Of a DNA stretch of 64,000 nucleotides, positions 28,810 to 38,143 are shown in pieces. Both the position numbers and the translations under genes were made by a program. The DNA is from an uncultured Clostridia bacterium (GTDB lineage Bacteria; Bacillota; Clostridia; Christensenellales; UBA1242), in assembly GCA_944360075.1 (NCBI GenBank), contig CALVTE010000002.1, forward strand, positions 14,638 through 78,637, written 5' to 3'. How positions within the stretch are numbered: the first letter of the stretch is position 1; every line of letters starts with the position of its first letter. Under the pieces are notes generated by a model. That model was not told the origin of the DNA. It did not search any database and saw only the letters and a list, made by a program, of their open reading frames with translations.

Positions 28810-30033
28810 TTATCTGTCAAAAGACAAGTAGATTTCATTGTTTTTTTTGAAAATTTCTTTTGTAAGCAAAAAAAAGTTGAAATACTTGGTGTTGTCAGCA
28901 AACATATACCTTGCTCCATTATGAACAATAAAAATCCGTTTCCACCTTTGATTTCGGTATAAACAGACCTCTTTAAGCCCCTTAAAATTTTCGTTGATTT
29001 GCTCGCCATTTTCAAATTTTTTAAGCACAGAATTTTTGATTTTTAGATAGGAATTTTCACTTTCTTCATCGTGTTCATTTTTTTGCCATTTTTCCCAGAT
29101 TTTTCTTGGCAAAGAGCGATTGAAAGTCTCGTCAAAATCACTGTTTTTTGTTTTGAGCTGCAAATCAAAAATTTCAAACATCTTTTGCTGACTTAAATTG
29201 AAAAATTCGTTCATATCAAGAGAAGAATGAAAGCAATATTTTTTGTCTCCAAAATTGAAATATATTTTTCTTTGTTCTTTTGGAAGAAGTTTGAGCTCCA
29301 CTTCAAAATTTATGCAAGCAAAAGATGAAAACTCAAGGCCGTCAACGTTGGCAAAATTGAACCTTGCGTTGCGACAGAAAAAGTTGAAAAAGGCTCTGTC
29401 TTTGCTGGTGAGATTTTTGATTTCAACATAGTCTTTTTGTCTGTTGAAAAAGTAATAGCCTCTAGGCAAAGGCAAATTTAGTTCCACCCTCACGCTCTGG
29501 CAAGTTTTTTCTATATTAGTCAGCGAAATGAGAAAATTTTTGCCGTTACACAAAAATTCTTTTATATCAACAACAATCCCCTTCTCACAAAATTTTTTGT
29601 GCAGATAATATGGAGAAAAAGATAGCTCGACCTGCTTTCCGTTTATCGCCAAAAACTCATCATTATATTTCACTTTATAGTTTGAGAAGGCGGGATAATT
29701 TATATTCAAGGCGTCCAAAGAGTAATAAAAATTCTGCCCCATTTCTTCTGGCAATATGACAAACACATTTTTCAAAGATTTGATTTTTTTTGCTCCCACA
29801 CAAGGCTTTTTGGTCAAAATCAAGTTGAACTGGGCTCTTTTTTGCGCTTTTTTGAAGGCTTTAAAAAAGATTTGTGTCAGTGGCTTTTTAAAAATAAAAA
29901 CAGGCAAAGTGGTGTTGATGCCAACAATATTCAAAATCTCATAGTCAACTTCTTTGTTCAAATTTGGTGCGTGATACTTTATTTTGTTAAAAATAAGCTC
30001 TTCCAATTTTGATATATACTCTTTTTTTGTCAT
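28810..30033 (-). CDS. hypothetical protein (orphan), translationally adjacent to rarA
   Basis: 407 aa, Asn/Lys/Phe-rich, no motif recognised. Its stop lies 2 nt before the rarA start. No Shine-Dalgarno and no clear promoter between it and the rnpB terminator. Confidence 0.5.
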   Translation of the reverse strand: MTKKEYISKLEELIFNKIKYHAPNLNKEVDYEILNIVGINTTLPVFIFKKPLTQIFFKAFKKAQKRAQFNLILTKKPCVGAKKIKSLKNVFVILPEEMGQNFYYSLDALNINYPAFSNYKVKYNDEFLAINGKQVELSFSPYYLHKKFCEKGIVVDIKEFLCNGKNFLISLTNIEKTCQSVRVELNLPLPRGYYFFNRQKDYVEIKNLTSKDRAFFNFFCRNARFNFANVDGLEFSSFACINFEVELKLLPKEQRKIYFNFGDKKYCFHSSLDMNEFFNLSQQKMFEIFDLQLKTKNSDFDETFNRSLPRKIWEKWQKNEHDEESENSYLKIKNSVLKKFENGEQINENFKGLKEVCLYRNQRWKRIFIVHNGARYMFADNTKYFNFFLLTKEIFKKNNEIYLSFDR

Positions 30034-30067: not shown

Positions 30068-30088
30068 AAAAAAAGTGGCAAATGCCAC
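30068..30088 (-). terminator. intrinsic terminator after rnpB
   Basis: Minus strand GTGGC-attt-GCCAC followed by TTTTTTTG. Confidence 0.7.
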
Positions 30089-30090
30089 AA

Positions 30091-30413
30091 GTCAGTTATG
30101 CTGTAAGCCGAGTTCTGTATTTGACAATCATCTATCTAGTTTTGCAGTTGCCTGCAAAATCAAGCGGTCTAAAAGGGCGTGAGAGAACGCACATTTGCCC
30201 TTCAGCCTTGCATCAGGTGGGGTTTACAGAGCAAAAACTATCTCTAGTTTTCCGGTGGTCTCTTACACCACCTTTCCATCCTTACCAAAGTTTTGGCGGT
30301 TTATTTCTGTTGCACTTTCCTTAGGGTCGCCCCCACAGGCCGTTAGCCTGCACCATGTTCTCTGGATGCTCGGACTTTCCTCATCTTGCGATGCGATTGT
30401 CTGCATAACTGAC
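30091..30413 (-). ncRNA. rnpB: RNase P RNA (type A-like, compact, about 323 nt)
   Basis: Minus strand GAGGAAAGTCCGAGC (P4 5' strand), GTAAGAGACCACC, GTAAACCCCACC and ACAGAACTCGGCTTACAG (P4 3' strand). P1 pairing of GTCAGTTATGC (30403-30413) with GCATAACTGAC (30091-30101). Confidence 0.9.
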
Positions 30414-30419
30414 ACGAAT

Positions 30420-30448
30420 ATTATACAAAACAATTCAAGAATTGTCAA
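30420..30448 (-). promoter_or_regulatory. sigma-A-type promoter of rnpB
   Basis: Minus strand TTGACA-17 nt-TATAAT, exact. The predicted start falls at about 30413, the first P1 nucleotide. Confidence 0.7.
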
Positions 30449-30467
30449 TATTTTAAAAAAATTGCTC

Positions 30468-30496
30468 TTGACAAATCAGAAAAATTGTGCTAACAT
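30468..30496 (+). promoter_or_regulatory. promoter of the two-gene orphan cassette (extended -10)
   Basis: Plus strand TTGACA-17 nt-(TGc)TAACAT. The -10 ends 1 nt before the first ATG of the ORF, so translation must start at ATG 30503 or 30509. Confidence 0.55.
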
Positions 30497-30913
30497 ATGG
30501 GTATGAAAATGATAGAGAGAAGTTTCAACAAAAATAGCTCAAAGGTTGCAAAGCCAATGTTAATTGCTCATACGGATGAATTTAAGGCCTTGGTTGAAGG
30601 CAAGCCGAAAAACCTGAGGCAGATTTCAAACGCTTTGCAAGAGCTTATACGCAACGGCGTGGTGGTTGGTGTTGTTGACATTGCAAACATCATAAAGCAT
30701 TTTCATGCAGCAAATCCAGAATTTGACACCTCCGAATTCAAAAGAATGCTTATTGAAAAGTTGAAAACCACCGACGAATACTTTGTAAGCATTGTGACTG
30801 ACATGATAAACAAAGAAGATGACCTTAAAAACGCCTTCACAAACGAAGAACTTATTGAAATCGAAACCGTGTTGTTAGGTTTTAAGAGCTCAGTCAACCA
30901 AGAACACATATAA
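30497..30913 (+). CDS. hypothetical protein (orphan cassette gene 1)
   Basis: 138-aa ORF with no recognised motif and no SD. The probable real start is ATG 30503 (leaderless) or 30509 (MIERSFNKN...). Confidence 0.5.
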   Translation: MGMKMIERSFNKNSSKVAKPMLIAHTDEFKALVEGKPKNLRQISNALQELIRNGVVVGVVDIANIIKHFHAANPEFDTSEFKRMLIEKLKTTDEYFVSIVTDMINKEDDLKNAFTNEELIEIETVLLGFKSSVNQEHI

Positions 30914-30938
30914 TATAGCATAAGGAGTGTTTGGCAGC

Positions 30939-31361
30939 ATGATAGAACGCATCAATAACAAAGATATATCTAATAAATTTCTTCTGCATTATTTAAAGTG
31001 CGCTGCTGTTATGTCGCAATATGAAATAAACGATTTGATGAGTTTTATGAAATCGAATAAAAAATTATTCGAAGATGCACATTTTTCTAAGTTTTTGTAT
31101 TTTCAAATAATTTTGAAGAATAGAGGCCTTTGTTTTGATAAAAAGTTTCTCGACAACATGGCTGTAGGCGCCTTAAACTCTCTATACAAATTTTTACTGG
31201 GCAAAAATAAAGCTTTGACACAAAAAGATGACAATTATTATTGCAAAAACTTTGAATTGTTTGAAAGATTGTCGGACAATATCGACGTCAAAATTCTGCA
31301 AAAAATCAAATATGTGCCAAAACTAGACCACTGGAAAGAGCTTGAAATGCTAGAGGCTTAA
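30939..31361 (+). CDS. hypothetical protein (orphan cassette gene 2)
   Basis: 140 aa from ATG at 30939, with AAGGAG 11 nt upstream. Starts MIERINNKD. No recognised motif. The ORF-track GTG at 30927 overlaps the RBS. Confidence 0.5.
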   Translation: MIERINNKDISNKFLLHYLKCAAVMSQYEINDLMSFMKSNKKLFEDAHFSKFLYFQIILKNRGLCFDKKFLDNMAVGALNSLYKFLLGKNKALTQKDDNYYCKNFELFERLSDNIDVKILQKIKYVPKLDHWKELEMLEA

Positions 31362-31371
31362 CAACCTAAAG

Positions 31372-31397
31372 AAAAACACCCGTTTGGGTGTTTTTTT
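31372..31397. terminator. bidirectional intrinsic terminator
   Basis: AAAAACACCC-gttt-GGGTGTTTTTTT between the convergent cassette and the DAC-like gene. Confidence 0.75.
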
Positions 31398-32766
31398 AGC
31401 CAACTGTAAACAAAGTTTTGATTTTTCCATTTTTTCTGTCGCTATATAGCGCTGTTAAATTGCCGTCCTGCGAAATTTTTATCGCAATGCCATATTTTGC
31501 CAGCGTTTGAGCAGCAGCCAATCTTCCGCCCCCTTCACTGCCCGCTTCGATTTTGATTATAGCGCCGATAGCGATAACGTTTCCATCGCTGTCAAGCACA
31601 GTTGCTCCATCCATGCTGACAAGTTCTTGGCGAAGTTTGCGGCTCAAATCTTGAAAAGGCCTGTCCGCAATGATTTTCCGTAGTGCCAAAGCTTTATAGC
31701 ACTTTTCTTGTTGAAGAAAAACTCGGTAAGGCACTTTGTAGGTCTTTTCGGTGGAAGCAAGGCGCTGAAAGTTATAGAGTTTGTTTGCCTCTTCAAGTTC
31801 TTGCTCTTTTTTCATCTCAAAGTATTTTTCCATTATAATATCATGTGCATCGATGTGGGTTAAGGCCTGCTCAACCGAGTCTTTGTTGAGATAAACAAGG
31901 CACCCGCCCGAATAAGAGAAAGAGGTGTCAAGCGCTGTGAAATATATTGAGCGTCTGATATCCTTAAGCGAGTATGTGCCGCGGCTGAGAAGAAGTTGGA
32001 TGACTTCGTCATGCGAAAAAACATTCCAGCGGCCATTTCGTTTGGCAAACAGCAAAGTTCTGTTTTTGAAAATTAAAAAATCACCATATGAGGTCAAAAC
32101 AAGACCAATCCTTTTGTCGTTGCAATATTTGGCAATAGCTTCATATTTGTATGGCGAAACTGAAGGAGCACCTTTGCGTGAAAGAATTTGCACGTAGCCA
32201 TTGAGTATTCCATTTTTGTCAAATTCAACGGCCGAATATTCACCGTCTGTCAAAAGAGCATAAAAATCTTTGTCCATCACGTCGGTGTAGGAAATTCCAC
32301 CTTCTTCTTGAGAAAGATCCATAGAAAGATTAAGCACTGTGCAAATTGATATTTTTTTGCCCTCATAAGTGCGAGAAGACCACCTGTCAAGCTCGGAAAG
32401 AATGCCAAGCATCACAGAGACTGTTTCTTCGTTGTCACACAAACTGCGGCAGATTGACTTTTCAATGGCGTGAGATTGCAGGTTTACAACATAGTTTGCA
32501 TCATTTAAGTTAAGTTCTGAAATAGTGTTGATTTCAGAAAGAATTGATTTGAGCAAGGCAATTTCAAAATTTTGGAAAGCTTGTCCACGTTTCAAAACAA
32601 GACGATATTCATCCTGTTTTGAAGGCTTAAGCAAAAGTGAATTTTTTTTGCCGATAGCCACTTCGCTATCTCGAGATGAAGATTCAGCTTCTCCATCAAT
32701 ATATGAACCTGTAAACAGAGGCAAAACAAGTTTCTGCAAGATATTATAGAATTCAGCTTTTTCCAT
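31396..32766 (-). CDS. divergent tandem DAC (DisA_N, diadenylate-cyclase-fold)-like protein
   Basis: 456 aa from ATG at 32766, with AGGAGG 7 nt upstream. C-terminal module: GGCLVYL ... SMDGATVLDSDGNVIAIGAII ... GGGRLAAAQTLAKYGIAIKISQDGNLT, matching the DAC landmark order GALIVI / DGA / GTRHRAA / VSEETG. A second degenerate copy lies upstream: ISICTVL ... LTDGEYSAVEFDKNGILNGYVQI ... YKYEAIAKYCNDKRIGLVLTSYGDF. Confidence 0.55.
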   Translation of the reverse strand: MEKAEFYNILQKLVLPLFTGSYIDGEAESSSRDSEVAIGKKNSLLLKPSKQDEYRLVLKRGQAFQNFEIALLKSILSEINTISELNLNDANYVVNLQSHAIEKSICRSLCDNEETVSVMLGILSELDRWSSRTYEGKKISICTVLNLSMDLSQEEGGISYTDVMDKDFYALLTDGEYSAVEFDKNGILNGYVQILSRKGAPSVSPYKYEAIAKYCNDKRIGLVLTSYGDFLIFKNRTLLFAKRNGRWNVFSHDEVIQLLLSRGTYSLKDIRRSIYFTALDTSFSYSGGCLVYLNKDSVEQALTHIDAHDIIMEKYFEMKKEQELEEANKLYNFQRLASTEKTYKVPYRVFLQQEKCYKALALRKIIADRPFQDLSRKLRQELVSMDGATVLDSDGNVIAIGAIIKIEAGSEGGGRLAAAQTLAKYGIAIKISQDGNLTALYSDRKNGKIKTLFTVG

Positions 32767-32785
32767 CTTTTGCCTCCTTTTTTTC

Positions 32786-32815
32786 ATTATAATTCAATTT
32801 TTTTGTTTTTTTCAA
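32786..32815 (-). promoter_or_regulatory. possible sigma-A-type promoter of the DAC-like gene
   Basis: Minus strand TTGAAA-18 nt-TATAAT in the 77-nt gap after sigK. The -10 overlaps the upstream in-frame ATG at 32787, which argues for the 32766 start. Confidence 0.4.
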
Positions 32816-32843
32816 GCAAAATAACACAATTTTCTCAAATTAT

Positions 32844-33545
32844 TTAATATTTTTCTTCATTTGGCAATTTGTTTCGAATGATTGCCAAGGCTTTTGTTTC
32901 AATTCGAGACACGTAAGAGCGAGAAATTCCAAGTTTGTCAGCAACTTCTTTTTGGGTTAAAGATTTGTTGCCGTCAAGCCCGAATCTGAGAATAACCACC
33001 GCCCTTTCTCTCGGCGAAAGATTGTTGTCTAAAATTTTGTGGACATCTGACATAAACAAATTTCTTTCCACCGAATCGATAACATCTTCGCAATTTGGGT
33101 CGCAAATCACTTCAAAAAGTTCAAGTTCGTCACCCTTGCCATTGTTTGGAACGGTTGTGTGATAAGATATGGTACAGTTATGCTTTTTGCTTGCCCTTAT
33201 GGCCATCAAAATTTCGTTTTCAATGCATCGCGAGGCGTAGGTGCCAAGTTGTGCATTTTTTTCTGGTTTGAAAGTGTCGATGGCTTTTATCAGTCCAATC
33301 GTGCCAATAGAAATCATATCGTCCACTTCCAAACTGCCCGAAAATTTTTTGACAATATGGCTGACCAGCCTTAGATTATGCGTGATAAGTTTTTCGCGAG
33401 CGTCTTTGTCACCTTTGGCCAAAAGTTGCAACAGCTGCTGCTCTTCTTCTTTTGATAAGGGCTTTGGAAACCCTTGAACGCTACCCACAAAATAGGTAAA
33501 GTTGGAAATTTTTCCAACTATAGTAAGCAAACTTTCATAAAACAT
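32844..33545 (-). CDS. sigK: sporulation sigma factor, pro-sigma-K type
   Basis: 233 aa. FPKPLSKEEE, NLRLVSHIVKKF, ISIGTIGLIKAI, YASRCIENEILM and GISRSYVSRIE match SigK better than SigE (which has LPPPLS, VYIARKF, ISQSYISRLE). Short hydrophobic pro-sequence. Uninterrupted. Confidence 0.75.
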   Translation of the reverse strand: MFYESLLTIVGKISNFTYFVGSVQGFPKPLSKEEEQQLLQLLAKGDKDAREKLITHNLRLVSHIVKKFSGSLEVDDMISIGTIGLIKAIDTFKPEKNAQLGTYASRCIENEILMAIRASKKHNCTISYHTTVPNNGKGDELELFEVICDPNCEDVIDSVERNLFMSDVHKILDNNLSPRERAVVILRFGLDGNKSLTQKEVADKLGISRSYVSRIETKALAIIRNKLPNEEKY

Positions 33546-33619: not shown

Positions 33620-33645
33620 AAGAAAAACACAACCATATGGTTGCG
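33620..33645 (-). terminator. intrinsic terminator after ftsY
   Basis: Minus strand CAACC-atat-GGTTG followed by TGTTTTTCTTT. Confidence 0.5.
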
Positions 33646-33660
33646 TTTTGTAAAACTATA

Positions 33661-34557
33661 TTAAAACAAATTGTCCACAAACTCGTCACTATTGAATTGT
33701 TCAATATCATTTTCGCCCTCGCCAACTCCAACAAAAACAACAGGCAAAGCATAGTCTTTTTCAATGGCAATCACAACCCCGCCCTTTGCTGTGCCGTCAA
33801 GTTTTGTCAAAATTATGCCGTCAATTTTTACAAAATCATTGAAAGCAGAAATTTGAGAAAGTGCATTTTGCCCAGTGGTTGCATCCAGCACAATAAAGGT
33901 ATAGTGATGCGCCTGTGGATATTCTCGAGTTATAACTCTGTCAATTTTTTTAAGTTCTTCCATCAAATTTGTTTTGGTGTGTAGTCTTCCAGCCGTGTCA
34001 ACAAGCACAACATCGGTTTTGCGAGCTTTTGCACTTGCAATGCCATCAAAAACCACAGAGGCTGCATCTGCGCCTTCGTTTTGCTTGACAATTTTGGTTT
34101 TTGTGCGGCTGGCCCATTCGTTTAACTGGTTTGCTGCAGCAGCCCTAAAAGTGTCACCAGCCACAAGCAAAACATCTTTTTTGTTGTCTTTAAAGTATTT
34201 GGCAAGTTTGCCTATTGTGGTGGTTTTGCCAACGCCATTAACGCCAATAATTGTTATCACTGCTGGATAATCTATAGAGATTTGATTGAGCGAAGCAAAA
34301 TCATTTTTCAAAATTTGTTTAAGTTTTGCTTTGACCTCTTCGGCCGTTCTGATTTTTTCTTTTCTCGCGCTCAGCCTCAGCTGCTCAACAATATCCAGAC
34401 TGGTTTTGACTCCCACGTCACAAGAAATCAAAATGTCAGTAAGTTCGTCATAAAAATCGTCATCAATTTCTCCATGACTTAAAAGAGCGTCAATTTTGCG
34501 AGCGATGGCTTCTCTAGTTTTTCTCAGAGCATTGCCAATTTTTTTAAATATCCCCAT
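33661..34557 (-). CDS. ftsY: signal recognition particle receptor FtsY
   Basis: 298 aa from ATG at 34557, 1 nt after the smc stop. Motifs GVNGVGKTTTIGKLA, DTAGRLH, TKLDGTAKGG. Confidence 0.95.
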   Translation of the reverse strand: MGIFKKIGNALRKTREAIARKIDALLSHGEIDDDFYDELTDILISCDVGVKTSLDIVEQLRLSARKEKIRTAEEVKAKLKQILKNDFASLNQISIDYPAVITIIGVNGVGKTTTIGKLAKYFKDNKKDVLLVAGDTFRAAAANQLNEWASRTKTKIVKQNEGADAASVVFDGIASAKARKTDVVLVDTAGRLHTKTNLMEELKKIDRVITREYPQAHHYTFIVLDATTGQNALSQISAFNDFVKIDGIILTKLDGTAKGGVVIAIEKDYALPVVFVGVGEGENDIEQFNSDEFVDNLF

Positions 34558-34558
34558 T

Positions 34559-37500
34559 TTAATTCTCCTGAGCATGTCTGATAGCATCTGAAAGCTGAAC
34601 AGACACAATTTTTGAAACGCCTTTTTCTTCCATAGTCACGCCAAACAACGCTTGAGCATATTCCATGGTAGGTTTTTTGTGAGTTATAAGAATAAATTGA
34701 GTTTCGTTTGACAGTTTTTTAAGATATTTGTCAACAATTTCAACGTTGGAGTCATCAAGAGCGGCTTCAACTTCGTCAAACAAGCAAAATGGCAAAGGTT
34801 TTATTCTTAAAATTGCAAAAATCACAGCCATTGCGGTAAGCGATTTTTCTCCGCCAGAGAGAAGTGTCATGTTCTGAATTTTTTTGCCAGGCGGTTGAGC
34901 AAAAATTTCCACTCCGCTTTCAAGCGGGTCGTTTTCATCACACAAAGCAAGTTTTGCCGTTCCGCCACCAAACAATTCTTTGAAAGTCAGTTTAAAGCTT
35001 TCATTTATTCGATTAAGTTCGTTATTAAATTTTTCAATCATAATGCCTGAAAGGTCTTTTATAATCTTGTTCAAGTCGTCTTGTGCTTTTTCAAGGTCCT
35101 GCGCCTGAGTGCTAAGGTCGTCATATCTTTCATAAAGCACTTTGCAGTCTTCGATGGCATTGACGTTGACATAGCCGAGAGCGTTGATGGATTTTTTAAG
35201 CCTTGAAATTTCTGGCAGCGCTTGATTTATGTCAAAATCGGCTCGGCGAAGTTCTTGCGATGTGGAGTAGGTCAAAGAGTATTCTTCATATATGCGCTCT
35301 TGCATGTTTTCAAGTTCGCTGTCTACTTTTGACAAATTCATCTCTTCTCTAAATTTTTTGTCATGCAGAGAAGAAAGTTCGTCCATAAGCGAAGTTTTGG
35401 TCACATCAAGCTCTTTGATTTTTTCATTTATCGCTTGTTTTTCACCTTCAATATCAGCCCTTCTTTGCGTGCACTTTTCAAGCTCTTGCTTTTTTGAAGA
35501 AGTTGGAGCAGCTGCCAATTTTTCTTTGATAAGCTGCTCTGACTGACTGATAAACAAATCATTTTTCTTGATTTGCTCTTCAATCTCAACAAGAGTCTGC
35601 TTCAATCTGCCCTCTTCATTTTCCAGCCTGAGTTTTTCGTTGTCAGCATTTGAGAGTTTGGTTCTGATTTGCGCCATTTCAACTTTGACAGTCAAAATAT
35701 TTTCATTCACGTCATCTCTCTCTTTTCTGAGATGCTCAAATTTTTCTCGTTTTTCTTTCACAATTTCGTCTGCGTCTTCCTTGTTGCCAGACAGTGCACT
35801 TTCAAGTTTTTCAGCTTTGGCAAGTTCTTGCTCAATAAGTTGCAATTTGTTTTTCACAGTTTGGCTTTCCATCTCGCTGACTTGCAAGTTGTCGGCGGTT
35901 TCAACAAGACTCGACGAGAATTGCTCAATTTTTTCTTTATCTTTTGCAATTTCCACTTCAAGCAAACTTATCTGATTTCTTTTTTCAGCAAGACTTACGT
36001 GCGTTTTTTCAATATCGGCAGAAATTTGTTTGAGAAGGCTGTTGATTTGTTCAATTCTGACATTAAACTTGACAATCTCGTCGCCAAGAGTTTCAATCTC
36101 TCGCTCTCTGCCCATAATATTTGAAGATTCAGCCTTTTTGCTTCCACCTGTAAGCGAGCCTTGCGGATTGACAACATCGCCATCGAGAGTGACAATGCGA
36201 TAGGCGTAGCCGCTATTTTTTGCAACTTCCACAGCCACCTGCAGGTTTTCAGCAATAACGGTGGCTCCAAGCAAGTTGCTGACAACATTGTCGATAGATT
36301 TGTCGAAGTCAACAAGCTCAGAAGCAATTCCATAAATGCCCTGCTTTCCATCCACATATTTGCGGTCAAGACTTCTTCTTTTCATGGAAGTGATTGGCAA
36401 AAAAGTTGCTCTGCCAAAAGAGTTTTCTTTTAAGAATTTGATAAGCGCTTTTGCTTCTTCTTCATTGTGAGTGACAATGTTTTGCACTGCCCCGCCAAGA
36501 GCCACTTCTATGGCCGTTTCAAGTTTTTGAGGAACTTTGATAAGAGAAGCAATCACGCCAACAATCTTTGATTTGATTTGAGGATTTTTTTCACTTTCTT
36601 TAAGCAATTTTTTGACAGCATAAGCATAGCCGTCATATTCATTTTGCAGCTCGGTCAAAAGTTTTCTTCTGTTTTCAAAAACTTTGACTTGCGTGTTGAT
36701 GTTGGCTTTTTCGTTTTCAAGTTCTTTATTTTTACGCTGGTTTATAAAATCTTGGCTGGCCAAAAGTTTTTCTTGCTCTTTGAGCGACAATAGCTTATTT
36801 TCTTTTTCACTTAAAGCGTTTTTGGCCTCTGTTGCCAATTTTTTGCTTTCATCTTGCTTATTTGACAGCTCGCCGATATCATTTTCCAAATTTTTCAAAC
36901 TTTCACTCAAAAGGGCTTTTTCAGTTTTCAAACGAGAAACATTGCTCTTTATATCTGAAAGCGAGCCAAGCGTTTCGATAATCTTTTGCTGACTTGCTCC
37001 CGCCTCATCTTCGCTCAAGGCAAGTTCGTTTGCCAGCGCAAGATACTTGTCAGAAAGTTCGTTGAAAGACTCTTCAAGAATTTTAAGTTCGTTTTGCAAG
37101 GCTAAAATTTTATCTTCAAGTTCTTTTTTGTTTTCCTGGCAAAGCTCAAGAGCGGTCAAAGAGTTTGTTCGGTCAAGATGAAGTCGGTCATTTTCTTTGT
37201 TGGTATAGTTGATGCGCTCTCTGGCGAGTTTTGTCTCGCCTTCCTGTTTTTCAAGCCCTACGGTAAGGTCAAGGATTGTTTGGTTGATGCTTGCCAAAGT
37301 TTTGTCAAAGTTTTCAACAGAGCTCATCGCTTGACTGTATTGCTCATTTGCTTTGTCAAGGTCTGATTGTCTGATGTCTATCTGCTTTGCAAGGGCGTCG
37401 AGTTTTAATCCGATTTGTTCTTTGACAGTGCTTGCATTTTCATATTGATAGATATATGCATTGACTTCCAAATCTTTCAGCTGGCCTTTATATTCCAAAT

Positions 37501-38143
37501 ATTTTTTGGCATTTTCAGCTTGTTTTTTCAGCGGCCCCATCTGCCTTTCAATTTCACAGATAATGTCTTTAACGCGCGTAAGATTGTCAGTTGTTCGCTC
37601 TAATTTACGTTCTGCTTCTCGTTTGTCGTTTTTGTATTTAGAAATTCCCGCTGCATCTTCAAACATTGCTCTTCGGCTTTCTGGTTTTGCATCAACAAGT
37701 TCAGTGACTTTGCCCTGGCTGATAACTGAATAGCCATTTTTGCCAAGTCCGCTGTTATACAAAAGATTGGTGATATCTCTCAAGTGGCAAGTGTTGCGGT
37801 TGATAAGGTATTCACTTTCGCCAGAACGATAAAGTTTTCTTGTGATGGCAAGCTCGTCATAATCAAAATTGAAAAAACGGTTTGTGTTGTCAAATGTCAG
37901 CGTAACTTCGCAGTAAGAAAGACTCTTTCTTTTTTCTGTTCCATTGAAAATAACATCTTGCATGCTGTCACCACGCAAAGTTTTAGGACTTTGTTCACCC
38001 AAAACCCACCTTATTGCATCAGAAACATTGCTTTTGCCACAGCCGTTTGGCCCGACAATCGCAGTAAAGTTGTCGTTAAACTCAATCACAGTGCGATCTG
38101 CGAAAGATTTGAATCCAATCATTTCAATTTTTTTAAAAATCAT
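34559..38143 (-). CDS. smc: chromosome segregation protein SMC
   Basis: 1194 aa. Walker A GPNGCGKSN, long coiled coils, a hinge, signature LSGGEKSLTA, and Walker B LFDEVEAALD. Confidence 0.95.
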   Translation of the reverse strand: MIFKKIEMIGFKSFADRTVIEFNDNFTAIVGPNGCGKSNVSDAIRWVLGEQSPKTLRGDSMQDVIFNGTEKRKSLSYCEVTLTFDNTNRFFNFDYDELAITRKLYRSGESEYLINRNTCHLRDITNLLYNSGLGKNGYSVISQGKVTELVDAKPESRRAMFEDAAGISKYKNDKREAERKLERTTDNLTRVKDIICEIERQMGPLKKQAENAKKYLEYKGQLKDLEVNAYIYQYENASTVKEQIGLKLDALAKQIDIRQSDLDKANEQYSQAMSSVENFDKTLASINQTILDLTVGLEKQEGETKLARERINYTNKENDRLHLDRTNSLTALELCQENKKELEDKILALQNELKILEESFNELSDKYLALANELALSEDEAGASQQKIIETLGSLSDIKSNVSRLKTEKALLSESLKNLENDIGELSNKQDESKKLATEAKNALSEKENKLLSLKEQEKLLASQDFINQRKNKELENEKANINTQVKVFENRRKLLTELQNEYDGYAYAVKKLLKESEKNPQIKSKIVGVIASLIKVPQKLETAIEVALGGAVQNIVTHNEEEAKALIKFLKENSFGRATFLPITSMKRRSLDRKYVDGKQGIYGIASELVDFDKSIDNVVSNLLGATVIAENLQVAVEVAKNSGYAYRIVTLDGDVVNPQGSLTGGSKKAESSNIMGREREIETLGDEIVKFNVRIEQINSLLKQISADIEKTHVSLAEKRNQISLLEVEIAKDKEKIEQFSSSLVETADNLQVSEMESQTVKNKLQLIEQELAKAEKLESALSGNKEDADEIVKEKREKFEHLRKERDDVNENILTVKVEMAQIRTKLSNADNEKLRLENEEGRLKQTLVEIEEQIKKNDLFISQSEQLIKEKLAAAPTSSKKQELEKCTQRRADIEGEKQAINEKIKELDVTKTSLMDELSSLHDKKFREEMNLSKVDSELENMQERIYEEYSLTYSTSQELRRADFDINQALPEISRLKKSINALGYVNVNAIEDCKVLYERYDDLSTQAQDLEKAQDDLNKIIKDLSGIMIEKFNNELNRINESFKLTFKELFGGGTAKLALCDENDPLESGVEIFAQPPGKKIQNMTLLSGGEKSLTAMAVIFAILRIKPLPFCLFDEVEAALDDSNVEIVDKYLKKLSNETQFILITHKKPTMEYAQALFGVTMEEKGVSKIVSVQLSDAIRHAQEN

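Follow-up and report, generated by a model that had tools for sequence, protein, structure and literature searches.

What does a protein with two tandem diadenylate cyclase (DAC)-like modules do beside a sporulation sigma factor gene? The question is raised by gene X, located in a 64,000-nt stretch of DNA from an uncultured Clostridia bacterium (contig CALVTE010000002.1; the whole stretch is called the window), for which an earlier reading of the sequence, the original prediction, had proposed two tandem DAC-like modules in one polypeptide. Foldseek searches with the full model and with the middle module alone, and hhalign comparisons in the proposed register, bear this out, and the gene X protein is probably a three-part member of the DAC superfamily, composed of an N-terminal module, a pseudo-DAC middle module and a divergent C-terminal DAC. 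The gene and its parts are the following.

31396..32766, minus strand: gene X, 456-aa tandem pseudo-DAC/DAC protein; start ATG 32766, stop codon 31396-31398
32773..32778, minus strand: Shine-Dalgarno sequence AGGAGG of gene X, perfect, read directly, 6 nt 5' of ATG 32766
32503..32766, minus strand: N-terminal module, residues 8-95; without family match, low model confidence
32002..32502, minus strand: two-helix stalk and degenerate DAC-fold module, residues 96-262, predicted pseudo-enzyme (AlphaFold2, Foldseek, hhalign)
31399..31974, minus strand: C-terminal divergent DAC domain, residues 272-463 (Pfam DAC near threshold in homologues, Foldseek, hhalign)

Residue numbers count from M1 of the open reading frame (ORF) 31396..32787 (minus strand), as present in the ORF list of the window; the true start is M8. 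ATG 32766 replaces the ATG at 32787 because the ~520 homologues detected are all 455-456 aa long with the N-terminus MEK and because the Shine-Dalgarno sequence precedes it; the one at 32787 shares nucleotides with the -10 box of a promoter-like site described below. All peptide strings cited by the original prediction were recovered in the translation of the ORF. In the second copy, GGCLVYL occupies residues 294-300, SMDGATVLDSDGNVIAIGAII residues 391-411, GGGRLAAAQTLAKYG residues 419-433 and IAIKISQDGNLT residues 434-445; in the first, ISICTVLNLSMD occupies residues 146-157, LTDGEYSAVEFDKNGILNGYVQIL residues 179-202 and YKYEAIAKYCNDKRIGLVLTSYGDFLIF residues 213-240. The nucleotide ranges proposed for the copies convert to residues ~145-250 (copy 1) and ~293-455 (copy 2) and match two modelled beta/alpha modules.

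Predicted catalytic residues of the C-terminal domain

The C-terminal domain was compared by hhalign with five solved DACs of the PDB sequence set, CdaA of Listeria monocytogenes and Bacillus subtilis and three DisA. A profile of the C module from the diverse family aligned with them over 113 columns with the motifs in register (P=0.0016). In the alignment to CdaA of L. monocytogenes (LmCdaA), G294 corresponds to the Gly of GALIVI, D393-G394-A395 to D171-G172-A173, G420-G421-R422 to G201-T202-R203, L423 and A424 to H204 and R205, S439 to S222 and D441 to E224, the last being a conservative E to D exchange. The module also carries a subfamily-specific helical insert (residues ~320-361). The six best PDB matches found by Foldseek for the AlphaFold2 model of the full protein are DisA, DacM and DisA-3c1y (prob 0.98-1.0). 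Conservation was counted in 139 diverse representatives drawn from ~1,200 clusters of homologues, with the following result for the three motifs.

31603..31611, minus strand: DGA motif, D393-G394-A395 (D 139/139, G 139/139, A 131/139)
31522..31533, minus strand: GGR motif, G419-G420-G421-R422, replacing GTRHR (G420 139/139, R422 139/139)
31462..31473, minus strand: S439-Q440-D441-G442, equivalent of SEE(T)G (S 139/139, D 138/139, G 135/139)

The full RHR motif is absent from the C module: the first Arg is kept (R422=R203), and L423 and A424 stand in place of H204 and R205. The claim that RHR is lost in both copies thus holds in the C module for the H and the second R, but not for the first Arg, which is invariant. 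From this loss the original prediction had concluded that the protein is non-catalytic or uses different chemistry, a step that does not follow, as the C module retains R422, D393, S439 and D441 and as PanS DACs with the same DG(F/A) and GGR motifs are active (10.64898/2026.08.10.743927). PanS are minimal DACs; the contacts of RePanS are D71, G72, G107 and R108, and mutation of the catalytic sites, described as "DGF and GGR", abolishes synthesis (10.64898/2026.08.10.743927). Since the DGA motif, the GGR motif and the Ser/acidic pair of the C module are conserved family-wide and PanS shares the signature, the balance leans towards catalysis and, judged from sequence and by analogy, the C module is probably an active DAC. 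The C-terminal domain would bind a nucleoside triphosphate (NTP) and metal through D393, D441 and R422. Two C-terminal domains would then face each other in an oligomer and condense two NTPs into a cyclic dinucleotide, which may be cyclic di-AMP (c-di-AMP) or a variant of it.

Several observations weigh against this assignment. Besides the replacement of the H and second R of RHR, the window protein gives no match to Pfam DAC (DisA_N, PF02457) at E<=1. Pfam DAC does recognise the second copy in 9 of 34 close homologues (24.1-26.7 bits, best E=4.9e-6, profile positions 42-109 of 119) and matches the distant member P0264 (26.7 bits), a sequence-level signal for a DAC, with all scores just below the gathering score of 27 bits. 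Family profiles fall short of the solved DACs when HMMER is used: phmmer and hmmsearch of PDB sequences with the whole protein and with whole-family, C-module and middle-module profiles returned chance matches only (alpha-Rep, ARP8, eIF2B and TipC2, which were rejected as such). The model of the full protein has a predicted local distance difference test (pLDDT) score of 69, which is only moderate, and most loci lack a conserved partner or effector gene, as the 93 nearest neighbours span 82 Pfam families. A further signal in favour of a DAC is the weak match to NCBIfam DisA over residues 387-455 (E=0.011), the score against PRK13482 being 14.9 bits for a cut-off of 201.

Some of these points also feed the reading preferred by the original prediction, in which both modules are pseudo-enzymes and the protein is a non-catalytic nucleotide binder or sensor, for instance of c-di-AMP or of a signal of cyclic-oligonucleotide-based antiphage signalling systems (CBASS). 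The loss of the H204 and R205 equivalents and the sub-threshold Pfam DAC scores are what it expects; the pseudo-DAC module shows that the fold can be retained without canonical motifs, and a receptor role would fit those members of the family that adjoin a separate cyclase (CD-NTase). However, the acidic metal/phosphate positions D393 and D441 are conserved together with S439 and R422, the reduced DG(A/F) and GGR set is catalytically essential in PanS, and DS-2/CBASS-DAC defence needs the catalytic residues of the DAC and not those of the cGAS (PMC13069673). We consider a pure sensor doubtful and keep an active C-terminal DAC as the preferred reading.

The middle and N-terminal modules

The middle module (residues ~95-262), when modelled alone from a 38-sequence alignment, reached a pLDDT of 95.2. 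Its top 23 PDB matches by Foldseek were all DAC domains (CdaM, DacA, DacM, CdaA, DisA), with E values from 1.6e-4 to 1.3e-2 and prob 0.97-1.0, and the next match had a prob of 0.02. The DisA chain 9y4s_H was found both with the full model (93 columns at 26% identity, likely in the C module) and with the middle module (139 columns at 12% identity), so that each module seems to map onto one solved DAC independently of the other. When the middle and C modules were compared by hhalign using the 139 diverse sequences, they aligned over 76-83 columns (P=0.004-0.008) in the register originally proposed, in which DGEYSAV faces DGATVL, P212-x-K/R214 faces G-G-R422 and LTSYGDF faces ISQDGNL. When the alignment was shallow (62-95% identity), an hhalign test for an internal repeat had yielded a probability below 1%.

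Conservation in the middle module is strong. Y141, E142, G143, P212 and W254 are present in 137-139 of the 139 representatives and R250 in 134. The first three belong to one motif.

32359..32370, minus strand: near-invariant motif T140-Y141-E142-G143, at the start of the "GALIVI" strand (E142 139/139, Y141 137/139, G143 137/139)

Partial equivalents of DAC motifs are found at N/D181-G182, P212-x-R214 (K in the window) and N-x-N-G235-E/D236. The DGA motif is absent, D181-G182-E183 being present in the window, exactly as had been read for copy 1, and N-G-x in the family consensus. The claimed loss of motifs in this copy was correct in that the canonical catalytic residues are gone, but the sites themselves are still conserved (N/D181-G182 and P212-x-R214). 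The middle module is thus, as modelled, a DAC-fold pseudo-enzyme with conserved pocket residues of its own (TYEG, N/D-G, P-x-R/K, R250 and W254).

The DAC-like topology of the middle module might instead be convergent or a modelling artefact, the first copy then being no relic of a duplication and the protein having a single DAC-related domain. Similarity of the middle module to canonical DACs is undetectable by sequence (hhalign P=0.17), the hhalign probability between the middle and C modules is 5-8%, and the Foldseek matches of the middle module have TM-scores of 0.41-0.51 with root-mean-square deviations of 6-8 Å. Such an artefact would nevertheless have to yield a sharp cliff after 23 matches that are exclusively DAC domains, a pLDDT of 95 and conserved residues at four DAC-motif-equivalent positions in the same order, and a degenerate DAC-like domain has a precedent in the literature, the DACNH domain of CdaG. 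This explanation is very unlikely, and a pseudo-DAC preceding the divergent DAC remains our reading.

The N-terminal module is conserved at LPLF(T/P)G and at R67..F71, and the full model has a pLDDT below 50 over residues 1-69. The original prediction had left this region without a family, and so it stays: the isolated N-terminal and middle modules of five members gave no Pfam match even at E<=10, the presence of DACNG and DACNH models in the Pfam copy used being unconfirmed. Foldseek gave no match among viral structures. PHROGs and PADLOC scans of the window protein and of distant members yielded nothing usable. A regular-expression scan for DGA...RH(R/K) found no canonical DAC in the 64-kb window, which is the extent of that scan as distinct from the whole genome.

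The pseudo-DAC and N-terminal modules may act as regulatory, sensor or scaffold parts, like the role proposed for DACNG and DACNH. A bolder scheme would have the two DAC-fold modules pair in cis as an asymmetric pseudo-dimer. Triphosphate activation would then be confined to the C module, the acceptor nucleotide would sit in the pseudo-DAC pocket (TYEG, N-G and P-x-R), and a linear or asymmetric dinucleotide would be made instead of c-di-AMP. Under that scheme the gut Clostridia lineage would have turned a defence-derived enzyme into the synthase of a housekeeping signal, and gene X might be the sole DAC-type enzyme of these small genomes. We regard cis pairing of this kind as a long shot.

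Relatives of gene X and comparison with known systems

CdaG, DACNG and DACNH were reportedly defined by Galperin in 2023 (J Bacteriol). The comparison with CdaG made here relies on its published description and on the NF053872 model rather than on direct sequence comparison. The CdaG family has the layout DACNG-DACNH-DAC, DACNH being a degenerate DAC-like domain (10.64898/2026.08.10.743972, citing Galperin 2023), and includes DS-2C of the DS-2/CBASS-DAC system, a protein of ~550-575 aa that makes c-di-AMP in vitro (10.64898/2026.08.10.743927) and whose catalytic residues are required for defence (PMC13092281, PMC13069673). The gene X protein shares with CdaG/DS-2C the order of an N-terminal domain, a degenerate DAC-like domain and a DAC; some of its relatives (L082, L095, L169) lie, like DS-2C, beside patatin and CD-NTase genes; and a weak similarity to NCBIfam DS2_3 recurs at the DGA hairpin. 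The window protein scores 15 bits against NF053872 (DS2_3_antiphage; cut-off 630, E=0.0057, profile positions 412-451 of 576), and distant members score 10.7-13.7 bits or give no match. In contrast to CdaG/DS-2C, the gene X protein is ~100 aa shorter, lacks the C-terminal helix bundle and ends in its last beta-strand (E456-462 of 463), has N-terminal and middle modules without any Pfam match and, in the window, is encoded in a housekeeping block after sigK and not in a CBASS or other defence locus. The middle module may be a distant relative of DACNH.

With PanS, the gene X protein shares the reduced signature D-G-(A/F) and G-G-R, which replaces DGA and (T)RHR. PanS (Panoptoo/PanDA) is a single domain of ~150 aa paired with the 2TM-beta effector PanE, whereas the DAC of gene X is the last third of a 456-aa, three-module protein and no such effector adjoins it: gene X has sigK on one side and, on the other, two small ORFs for soluble proteins without hydrophobic segments. 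With DisA, CdaA and CdaS the gene X protein shares the fold of the catalytic domain, the DGA motif, the first Arg and, from the SEE motif, the Ser and the acidic residue; its ISQ-type last motif resembles that of DisA when the sequences are compared by eye. Unlike these enzymes, the gene X protein lacks the H and second R of RHR and stays below all curated model thresholds; it has neither the helix-hairpin-helix domain of DisA nor any residue after the DAC, no transmembrane helices as in CdaA and no two-helix N-terminus as in CdaS. We would place it in a CdaG-like family of pseudo-DAC plus DAC proteins whose catalytic signature is of the PanS type.

When 1.84 billion representatives were searched with a profile, a limit of E<=1e-3 gave 1,219 clusters and one of E<=1e-30 gave 381, with most members 400-490 aa long and matched end to end; at 50% identity, the family comprises ~1,200 clusters in more than 12 phyla. 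The source names of the homologues are all "hypothetical protein" but for one "DisA" and one "DisA nucleotide-binding domain protein". Hosts of the distant subfamily belong to Cloacimonadota, Desulfobacterota, Verrucomicrobiota, Bacteroidota, Alphaproteobacteria, Planctomycetota, Actinomycetota, Cyanobacteria, Omnitrophota, Zixibacteria and Bacillota, and this subfamily is also found on plasmids. Family members are common in non-sporeformers.

Many of these members occur in defence loci. Type I restriction-modification (R-M) operons contain seven of them (L081, L083, L091, L096, L112, L119, L120), five being inserted between hsdM/hsdS and hsdR with overlaps or gaps of at most 30 nt (L091, L096, L112, L119, L120). 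Among the three members beside patatin and CD-NTase genes, one is accompanied by Cap2/Cap3 too. Versions embedded in a type I R-M operon and adjoining CBASS genes occur, for example, in Desulfolutivibrio (CP045508.1, around 3.42 Mb) and in A. vitis, respectively; WP_235678681.1 is a homologue from A. vitis pRvVAT039d. Other defence-like islands (L084, L087, L170) carry Mrr/UvrD/DUF1156/DUF499, BrxC/TerB, or HNH/NucS-like/recombinase genes. Type I R-M operons may embed accessory genes such as those of the PrrC type. Distant gene X relatives resemble these in being embedded between hsdM/hsdS and hsdR; they differ in that fold and presumed chemistry are unrelated, and the copy in the window lies outside any R-M locus. 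The idea of one obligate partner was rejected given the diversity of nearest neighbours. Overall, this is a large family without annotation whose distribution is patchy, and many of its members are embedded in defence loci.

Other settings were observed. In one clostridial subfamily, a gene for an inosine-uridine nucleoside hydrolase always lies directly upstream of the gene X homologue on the same strand (L085 5938-6879, L088 5990-6907, L140-L143, L158 and L165), an adjacency that is possibly a link to nucleotide metabolism. In Desulfovibrio (L124, L126, L127, L128, L131) the homologue lies between rpoB and the gene of a 747-aa SpoIIE/PP2C and HATPase_c_2 protein, a fixed, non-defence position. 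A human-faecal contig of 6.5 kb (MT837587.1) carries, at 46-1038, a homologue that is 30% identical and aligns with 76% of X; the record, labelled "Bacteriophage sp.", is without annotation and only putatively viral.

Linkage of gene X to sigK

The surroundings of gene X in the window are as follows.

32844..33545, minus strand: SigK-type sporulation sigma factor gene (NCBIfam PRK05803 SigK, 254 bits, cut-off 252)
32786..32815, minus strand: sigma-70/sigma-A-like promoter TTGAAA-18-TATAAT in the sigK-X spacer, 11/12 match
31372..31395, minus strand: terminator-like hairpin and T-run, directly 3' of gene X
33624..33649, minus strand: terminator-like hairpin between ftsY and sigK, delimiting a possible sigK-X unit
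30088-30412, minus strand: RNase P RNA class A, rnpB (Rfam, 266 bits)

The lineage of the window was represented by the 80 closest loci, all from metagenome-assembled genomes of uncultured Clostridia/Firmicutes, 73 of which include upstream sequence. Adjacency to sigK, for which the original prediction had suggested a survey, was found in 69 of these 73 loci, with sigK directly upstream on the same strand. The 80 loci show housekeeping synteny without CBASS or other defence neighbours, the block reading pta-ackA-rpmF-plsX-rnc-smc-ftsY-sigK-X-rnpB-...-mgsA-polA. Because this synteny is fixed, the idea that gene X is simply a defence gene was rejected for the window copy. At the deepest divergence, identity is 52-56% for X, 49-54% for SigK, 52-61% for SMC and 68-77% for FtsY; X is conserved about like SMC and SigK and is therefore a constrained core gene. 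In the gut Clostridia lineage of the window, gene X is a vertically inherited core gene, fixed after sigK.

With the start at ATG 32766, the gap between the sigK stop (32844) and gene X is 77 nt, as originally stated. The spacer indeed contains the TTGAAA-18-TATAAT site, from 32815 to 32786 on the minus strand, and has no terminator-like hairpin, such hairpins only flanking the pair. Read-through from sigK is thus possible. Among relatives, the TTGaaa-17/18-TATAAT/TATACT box is kept although the surrounding spacer diverges, and a promoter match of at least 10/12 is found in 43% of 75 loci versus 6% of shuffled controls. From these signals we infer that gene X is expressed from its own sigma-A-type promoter, with possible read-through from sigK.

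These data bear on the possibility that gene X encodes a cyclase dedicated to sporulation, which would be the functional counterpart of CdaS in Bacillus and be co-transcribed with sigK late in the mother cell. Bacillus does have a sporulation-specific DAC, CdaS, and the adjacency in 69/73 loci, together with flanking terminators and none between the genes, would suit such an enzyme. Yet X has a conserved sigma-A-like promoter of its own, the spacer varies from ~80 to ~950 nt among relatives, and the genes around X form a generic housekeeping block of conserved order. In other clostridial subfamilies the homologue lies not after sigK but downstream of the nucleoside hydrolase gene or between lon and addBA. 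Non-sporeformers commonly carry the family, and the architecture of CdaS (a two-helix N-terminal domain and a canonical DAC) differs from that of the gene X protein. A dedicated sporulation cyclase is thus unlikely. Owing to the gene's own conserved promoter and the variable spacer, we read the sigK adjacency as lineage-specific synteny and not as evidence for sporulation; of the late mother-cell read-through proposed originally, the lack of an intervening terminator stands, and the rest is weakened by the promoter, by the subfamilies not linked to sigK and by the non-sporeforming hosts.

Further observations concern the neighbouring genes. The sigma factor (32844-33545) scores 247 against the SigK equivalog (cut-off 299) and 216 against SigE, and is most safely called "SigK-type". 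Two convergent ORFs of 138 and 144 aa (30497-30913 and 30927-31361, plus strand) separate gene X from rnpB and have no match in Pfam, NCBIfam, PADLOC or PHROGs. They are conserved at 28-45% identity in the three closest loci only and absent from other relatives, and this patchy, weak conservation makes them look like a variable insert. ORFs listed across rnpB (30082-30506) are spurious. A 407-aa ORF (28810-30033, minus strand) is syntenic across the lineage at 29-85% identity and has no family match in any library. The ftsY ORF as listed (33661-34608, minus strand, 315 aa from a TTG start) shares 50 nt with the end of smc (34559-38143, minus strand); as ftsY of a close relative encodes 298 aa, the real start is probably downstream.

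The action of DACs in anti-phage immunity was shown only in 2026, with PanS and DS-2C/CBASS-DAC, and gene X belongs to a large family that lies outside the coverage of Pfam, NCBIfam, PADLOC and PHROGs. What is new in it is the joining of a CdaG-like "pseudo-DAC + DAC" layout with a PanS-like reduced catalytic motif, each known separately. The family leads two genomic lifestyles, in type I R-M and CBASS loci of many phyla and as a core gene by sigK in uncultured gut Clostridia. Should the protein prove active, the repertoire of cyclic-nucleotide synthases would widen, and the control of a catalytic module by its pseudo-enzyme paralogue in cis could be studied in a tractable system. A further question is what nucleotide signal is employed by these abundant gut Clostridia.

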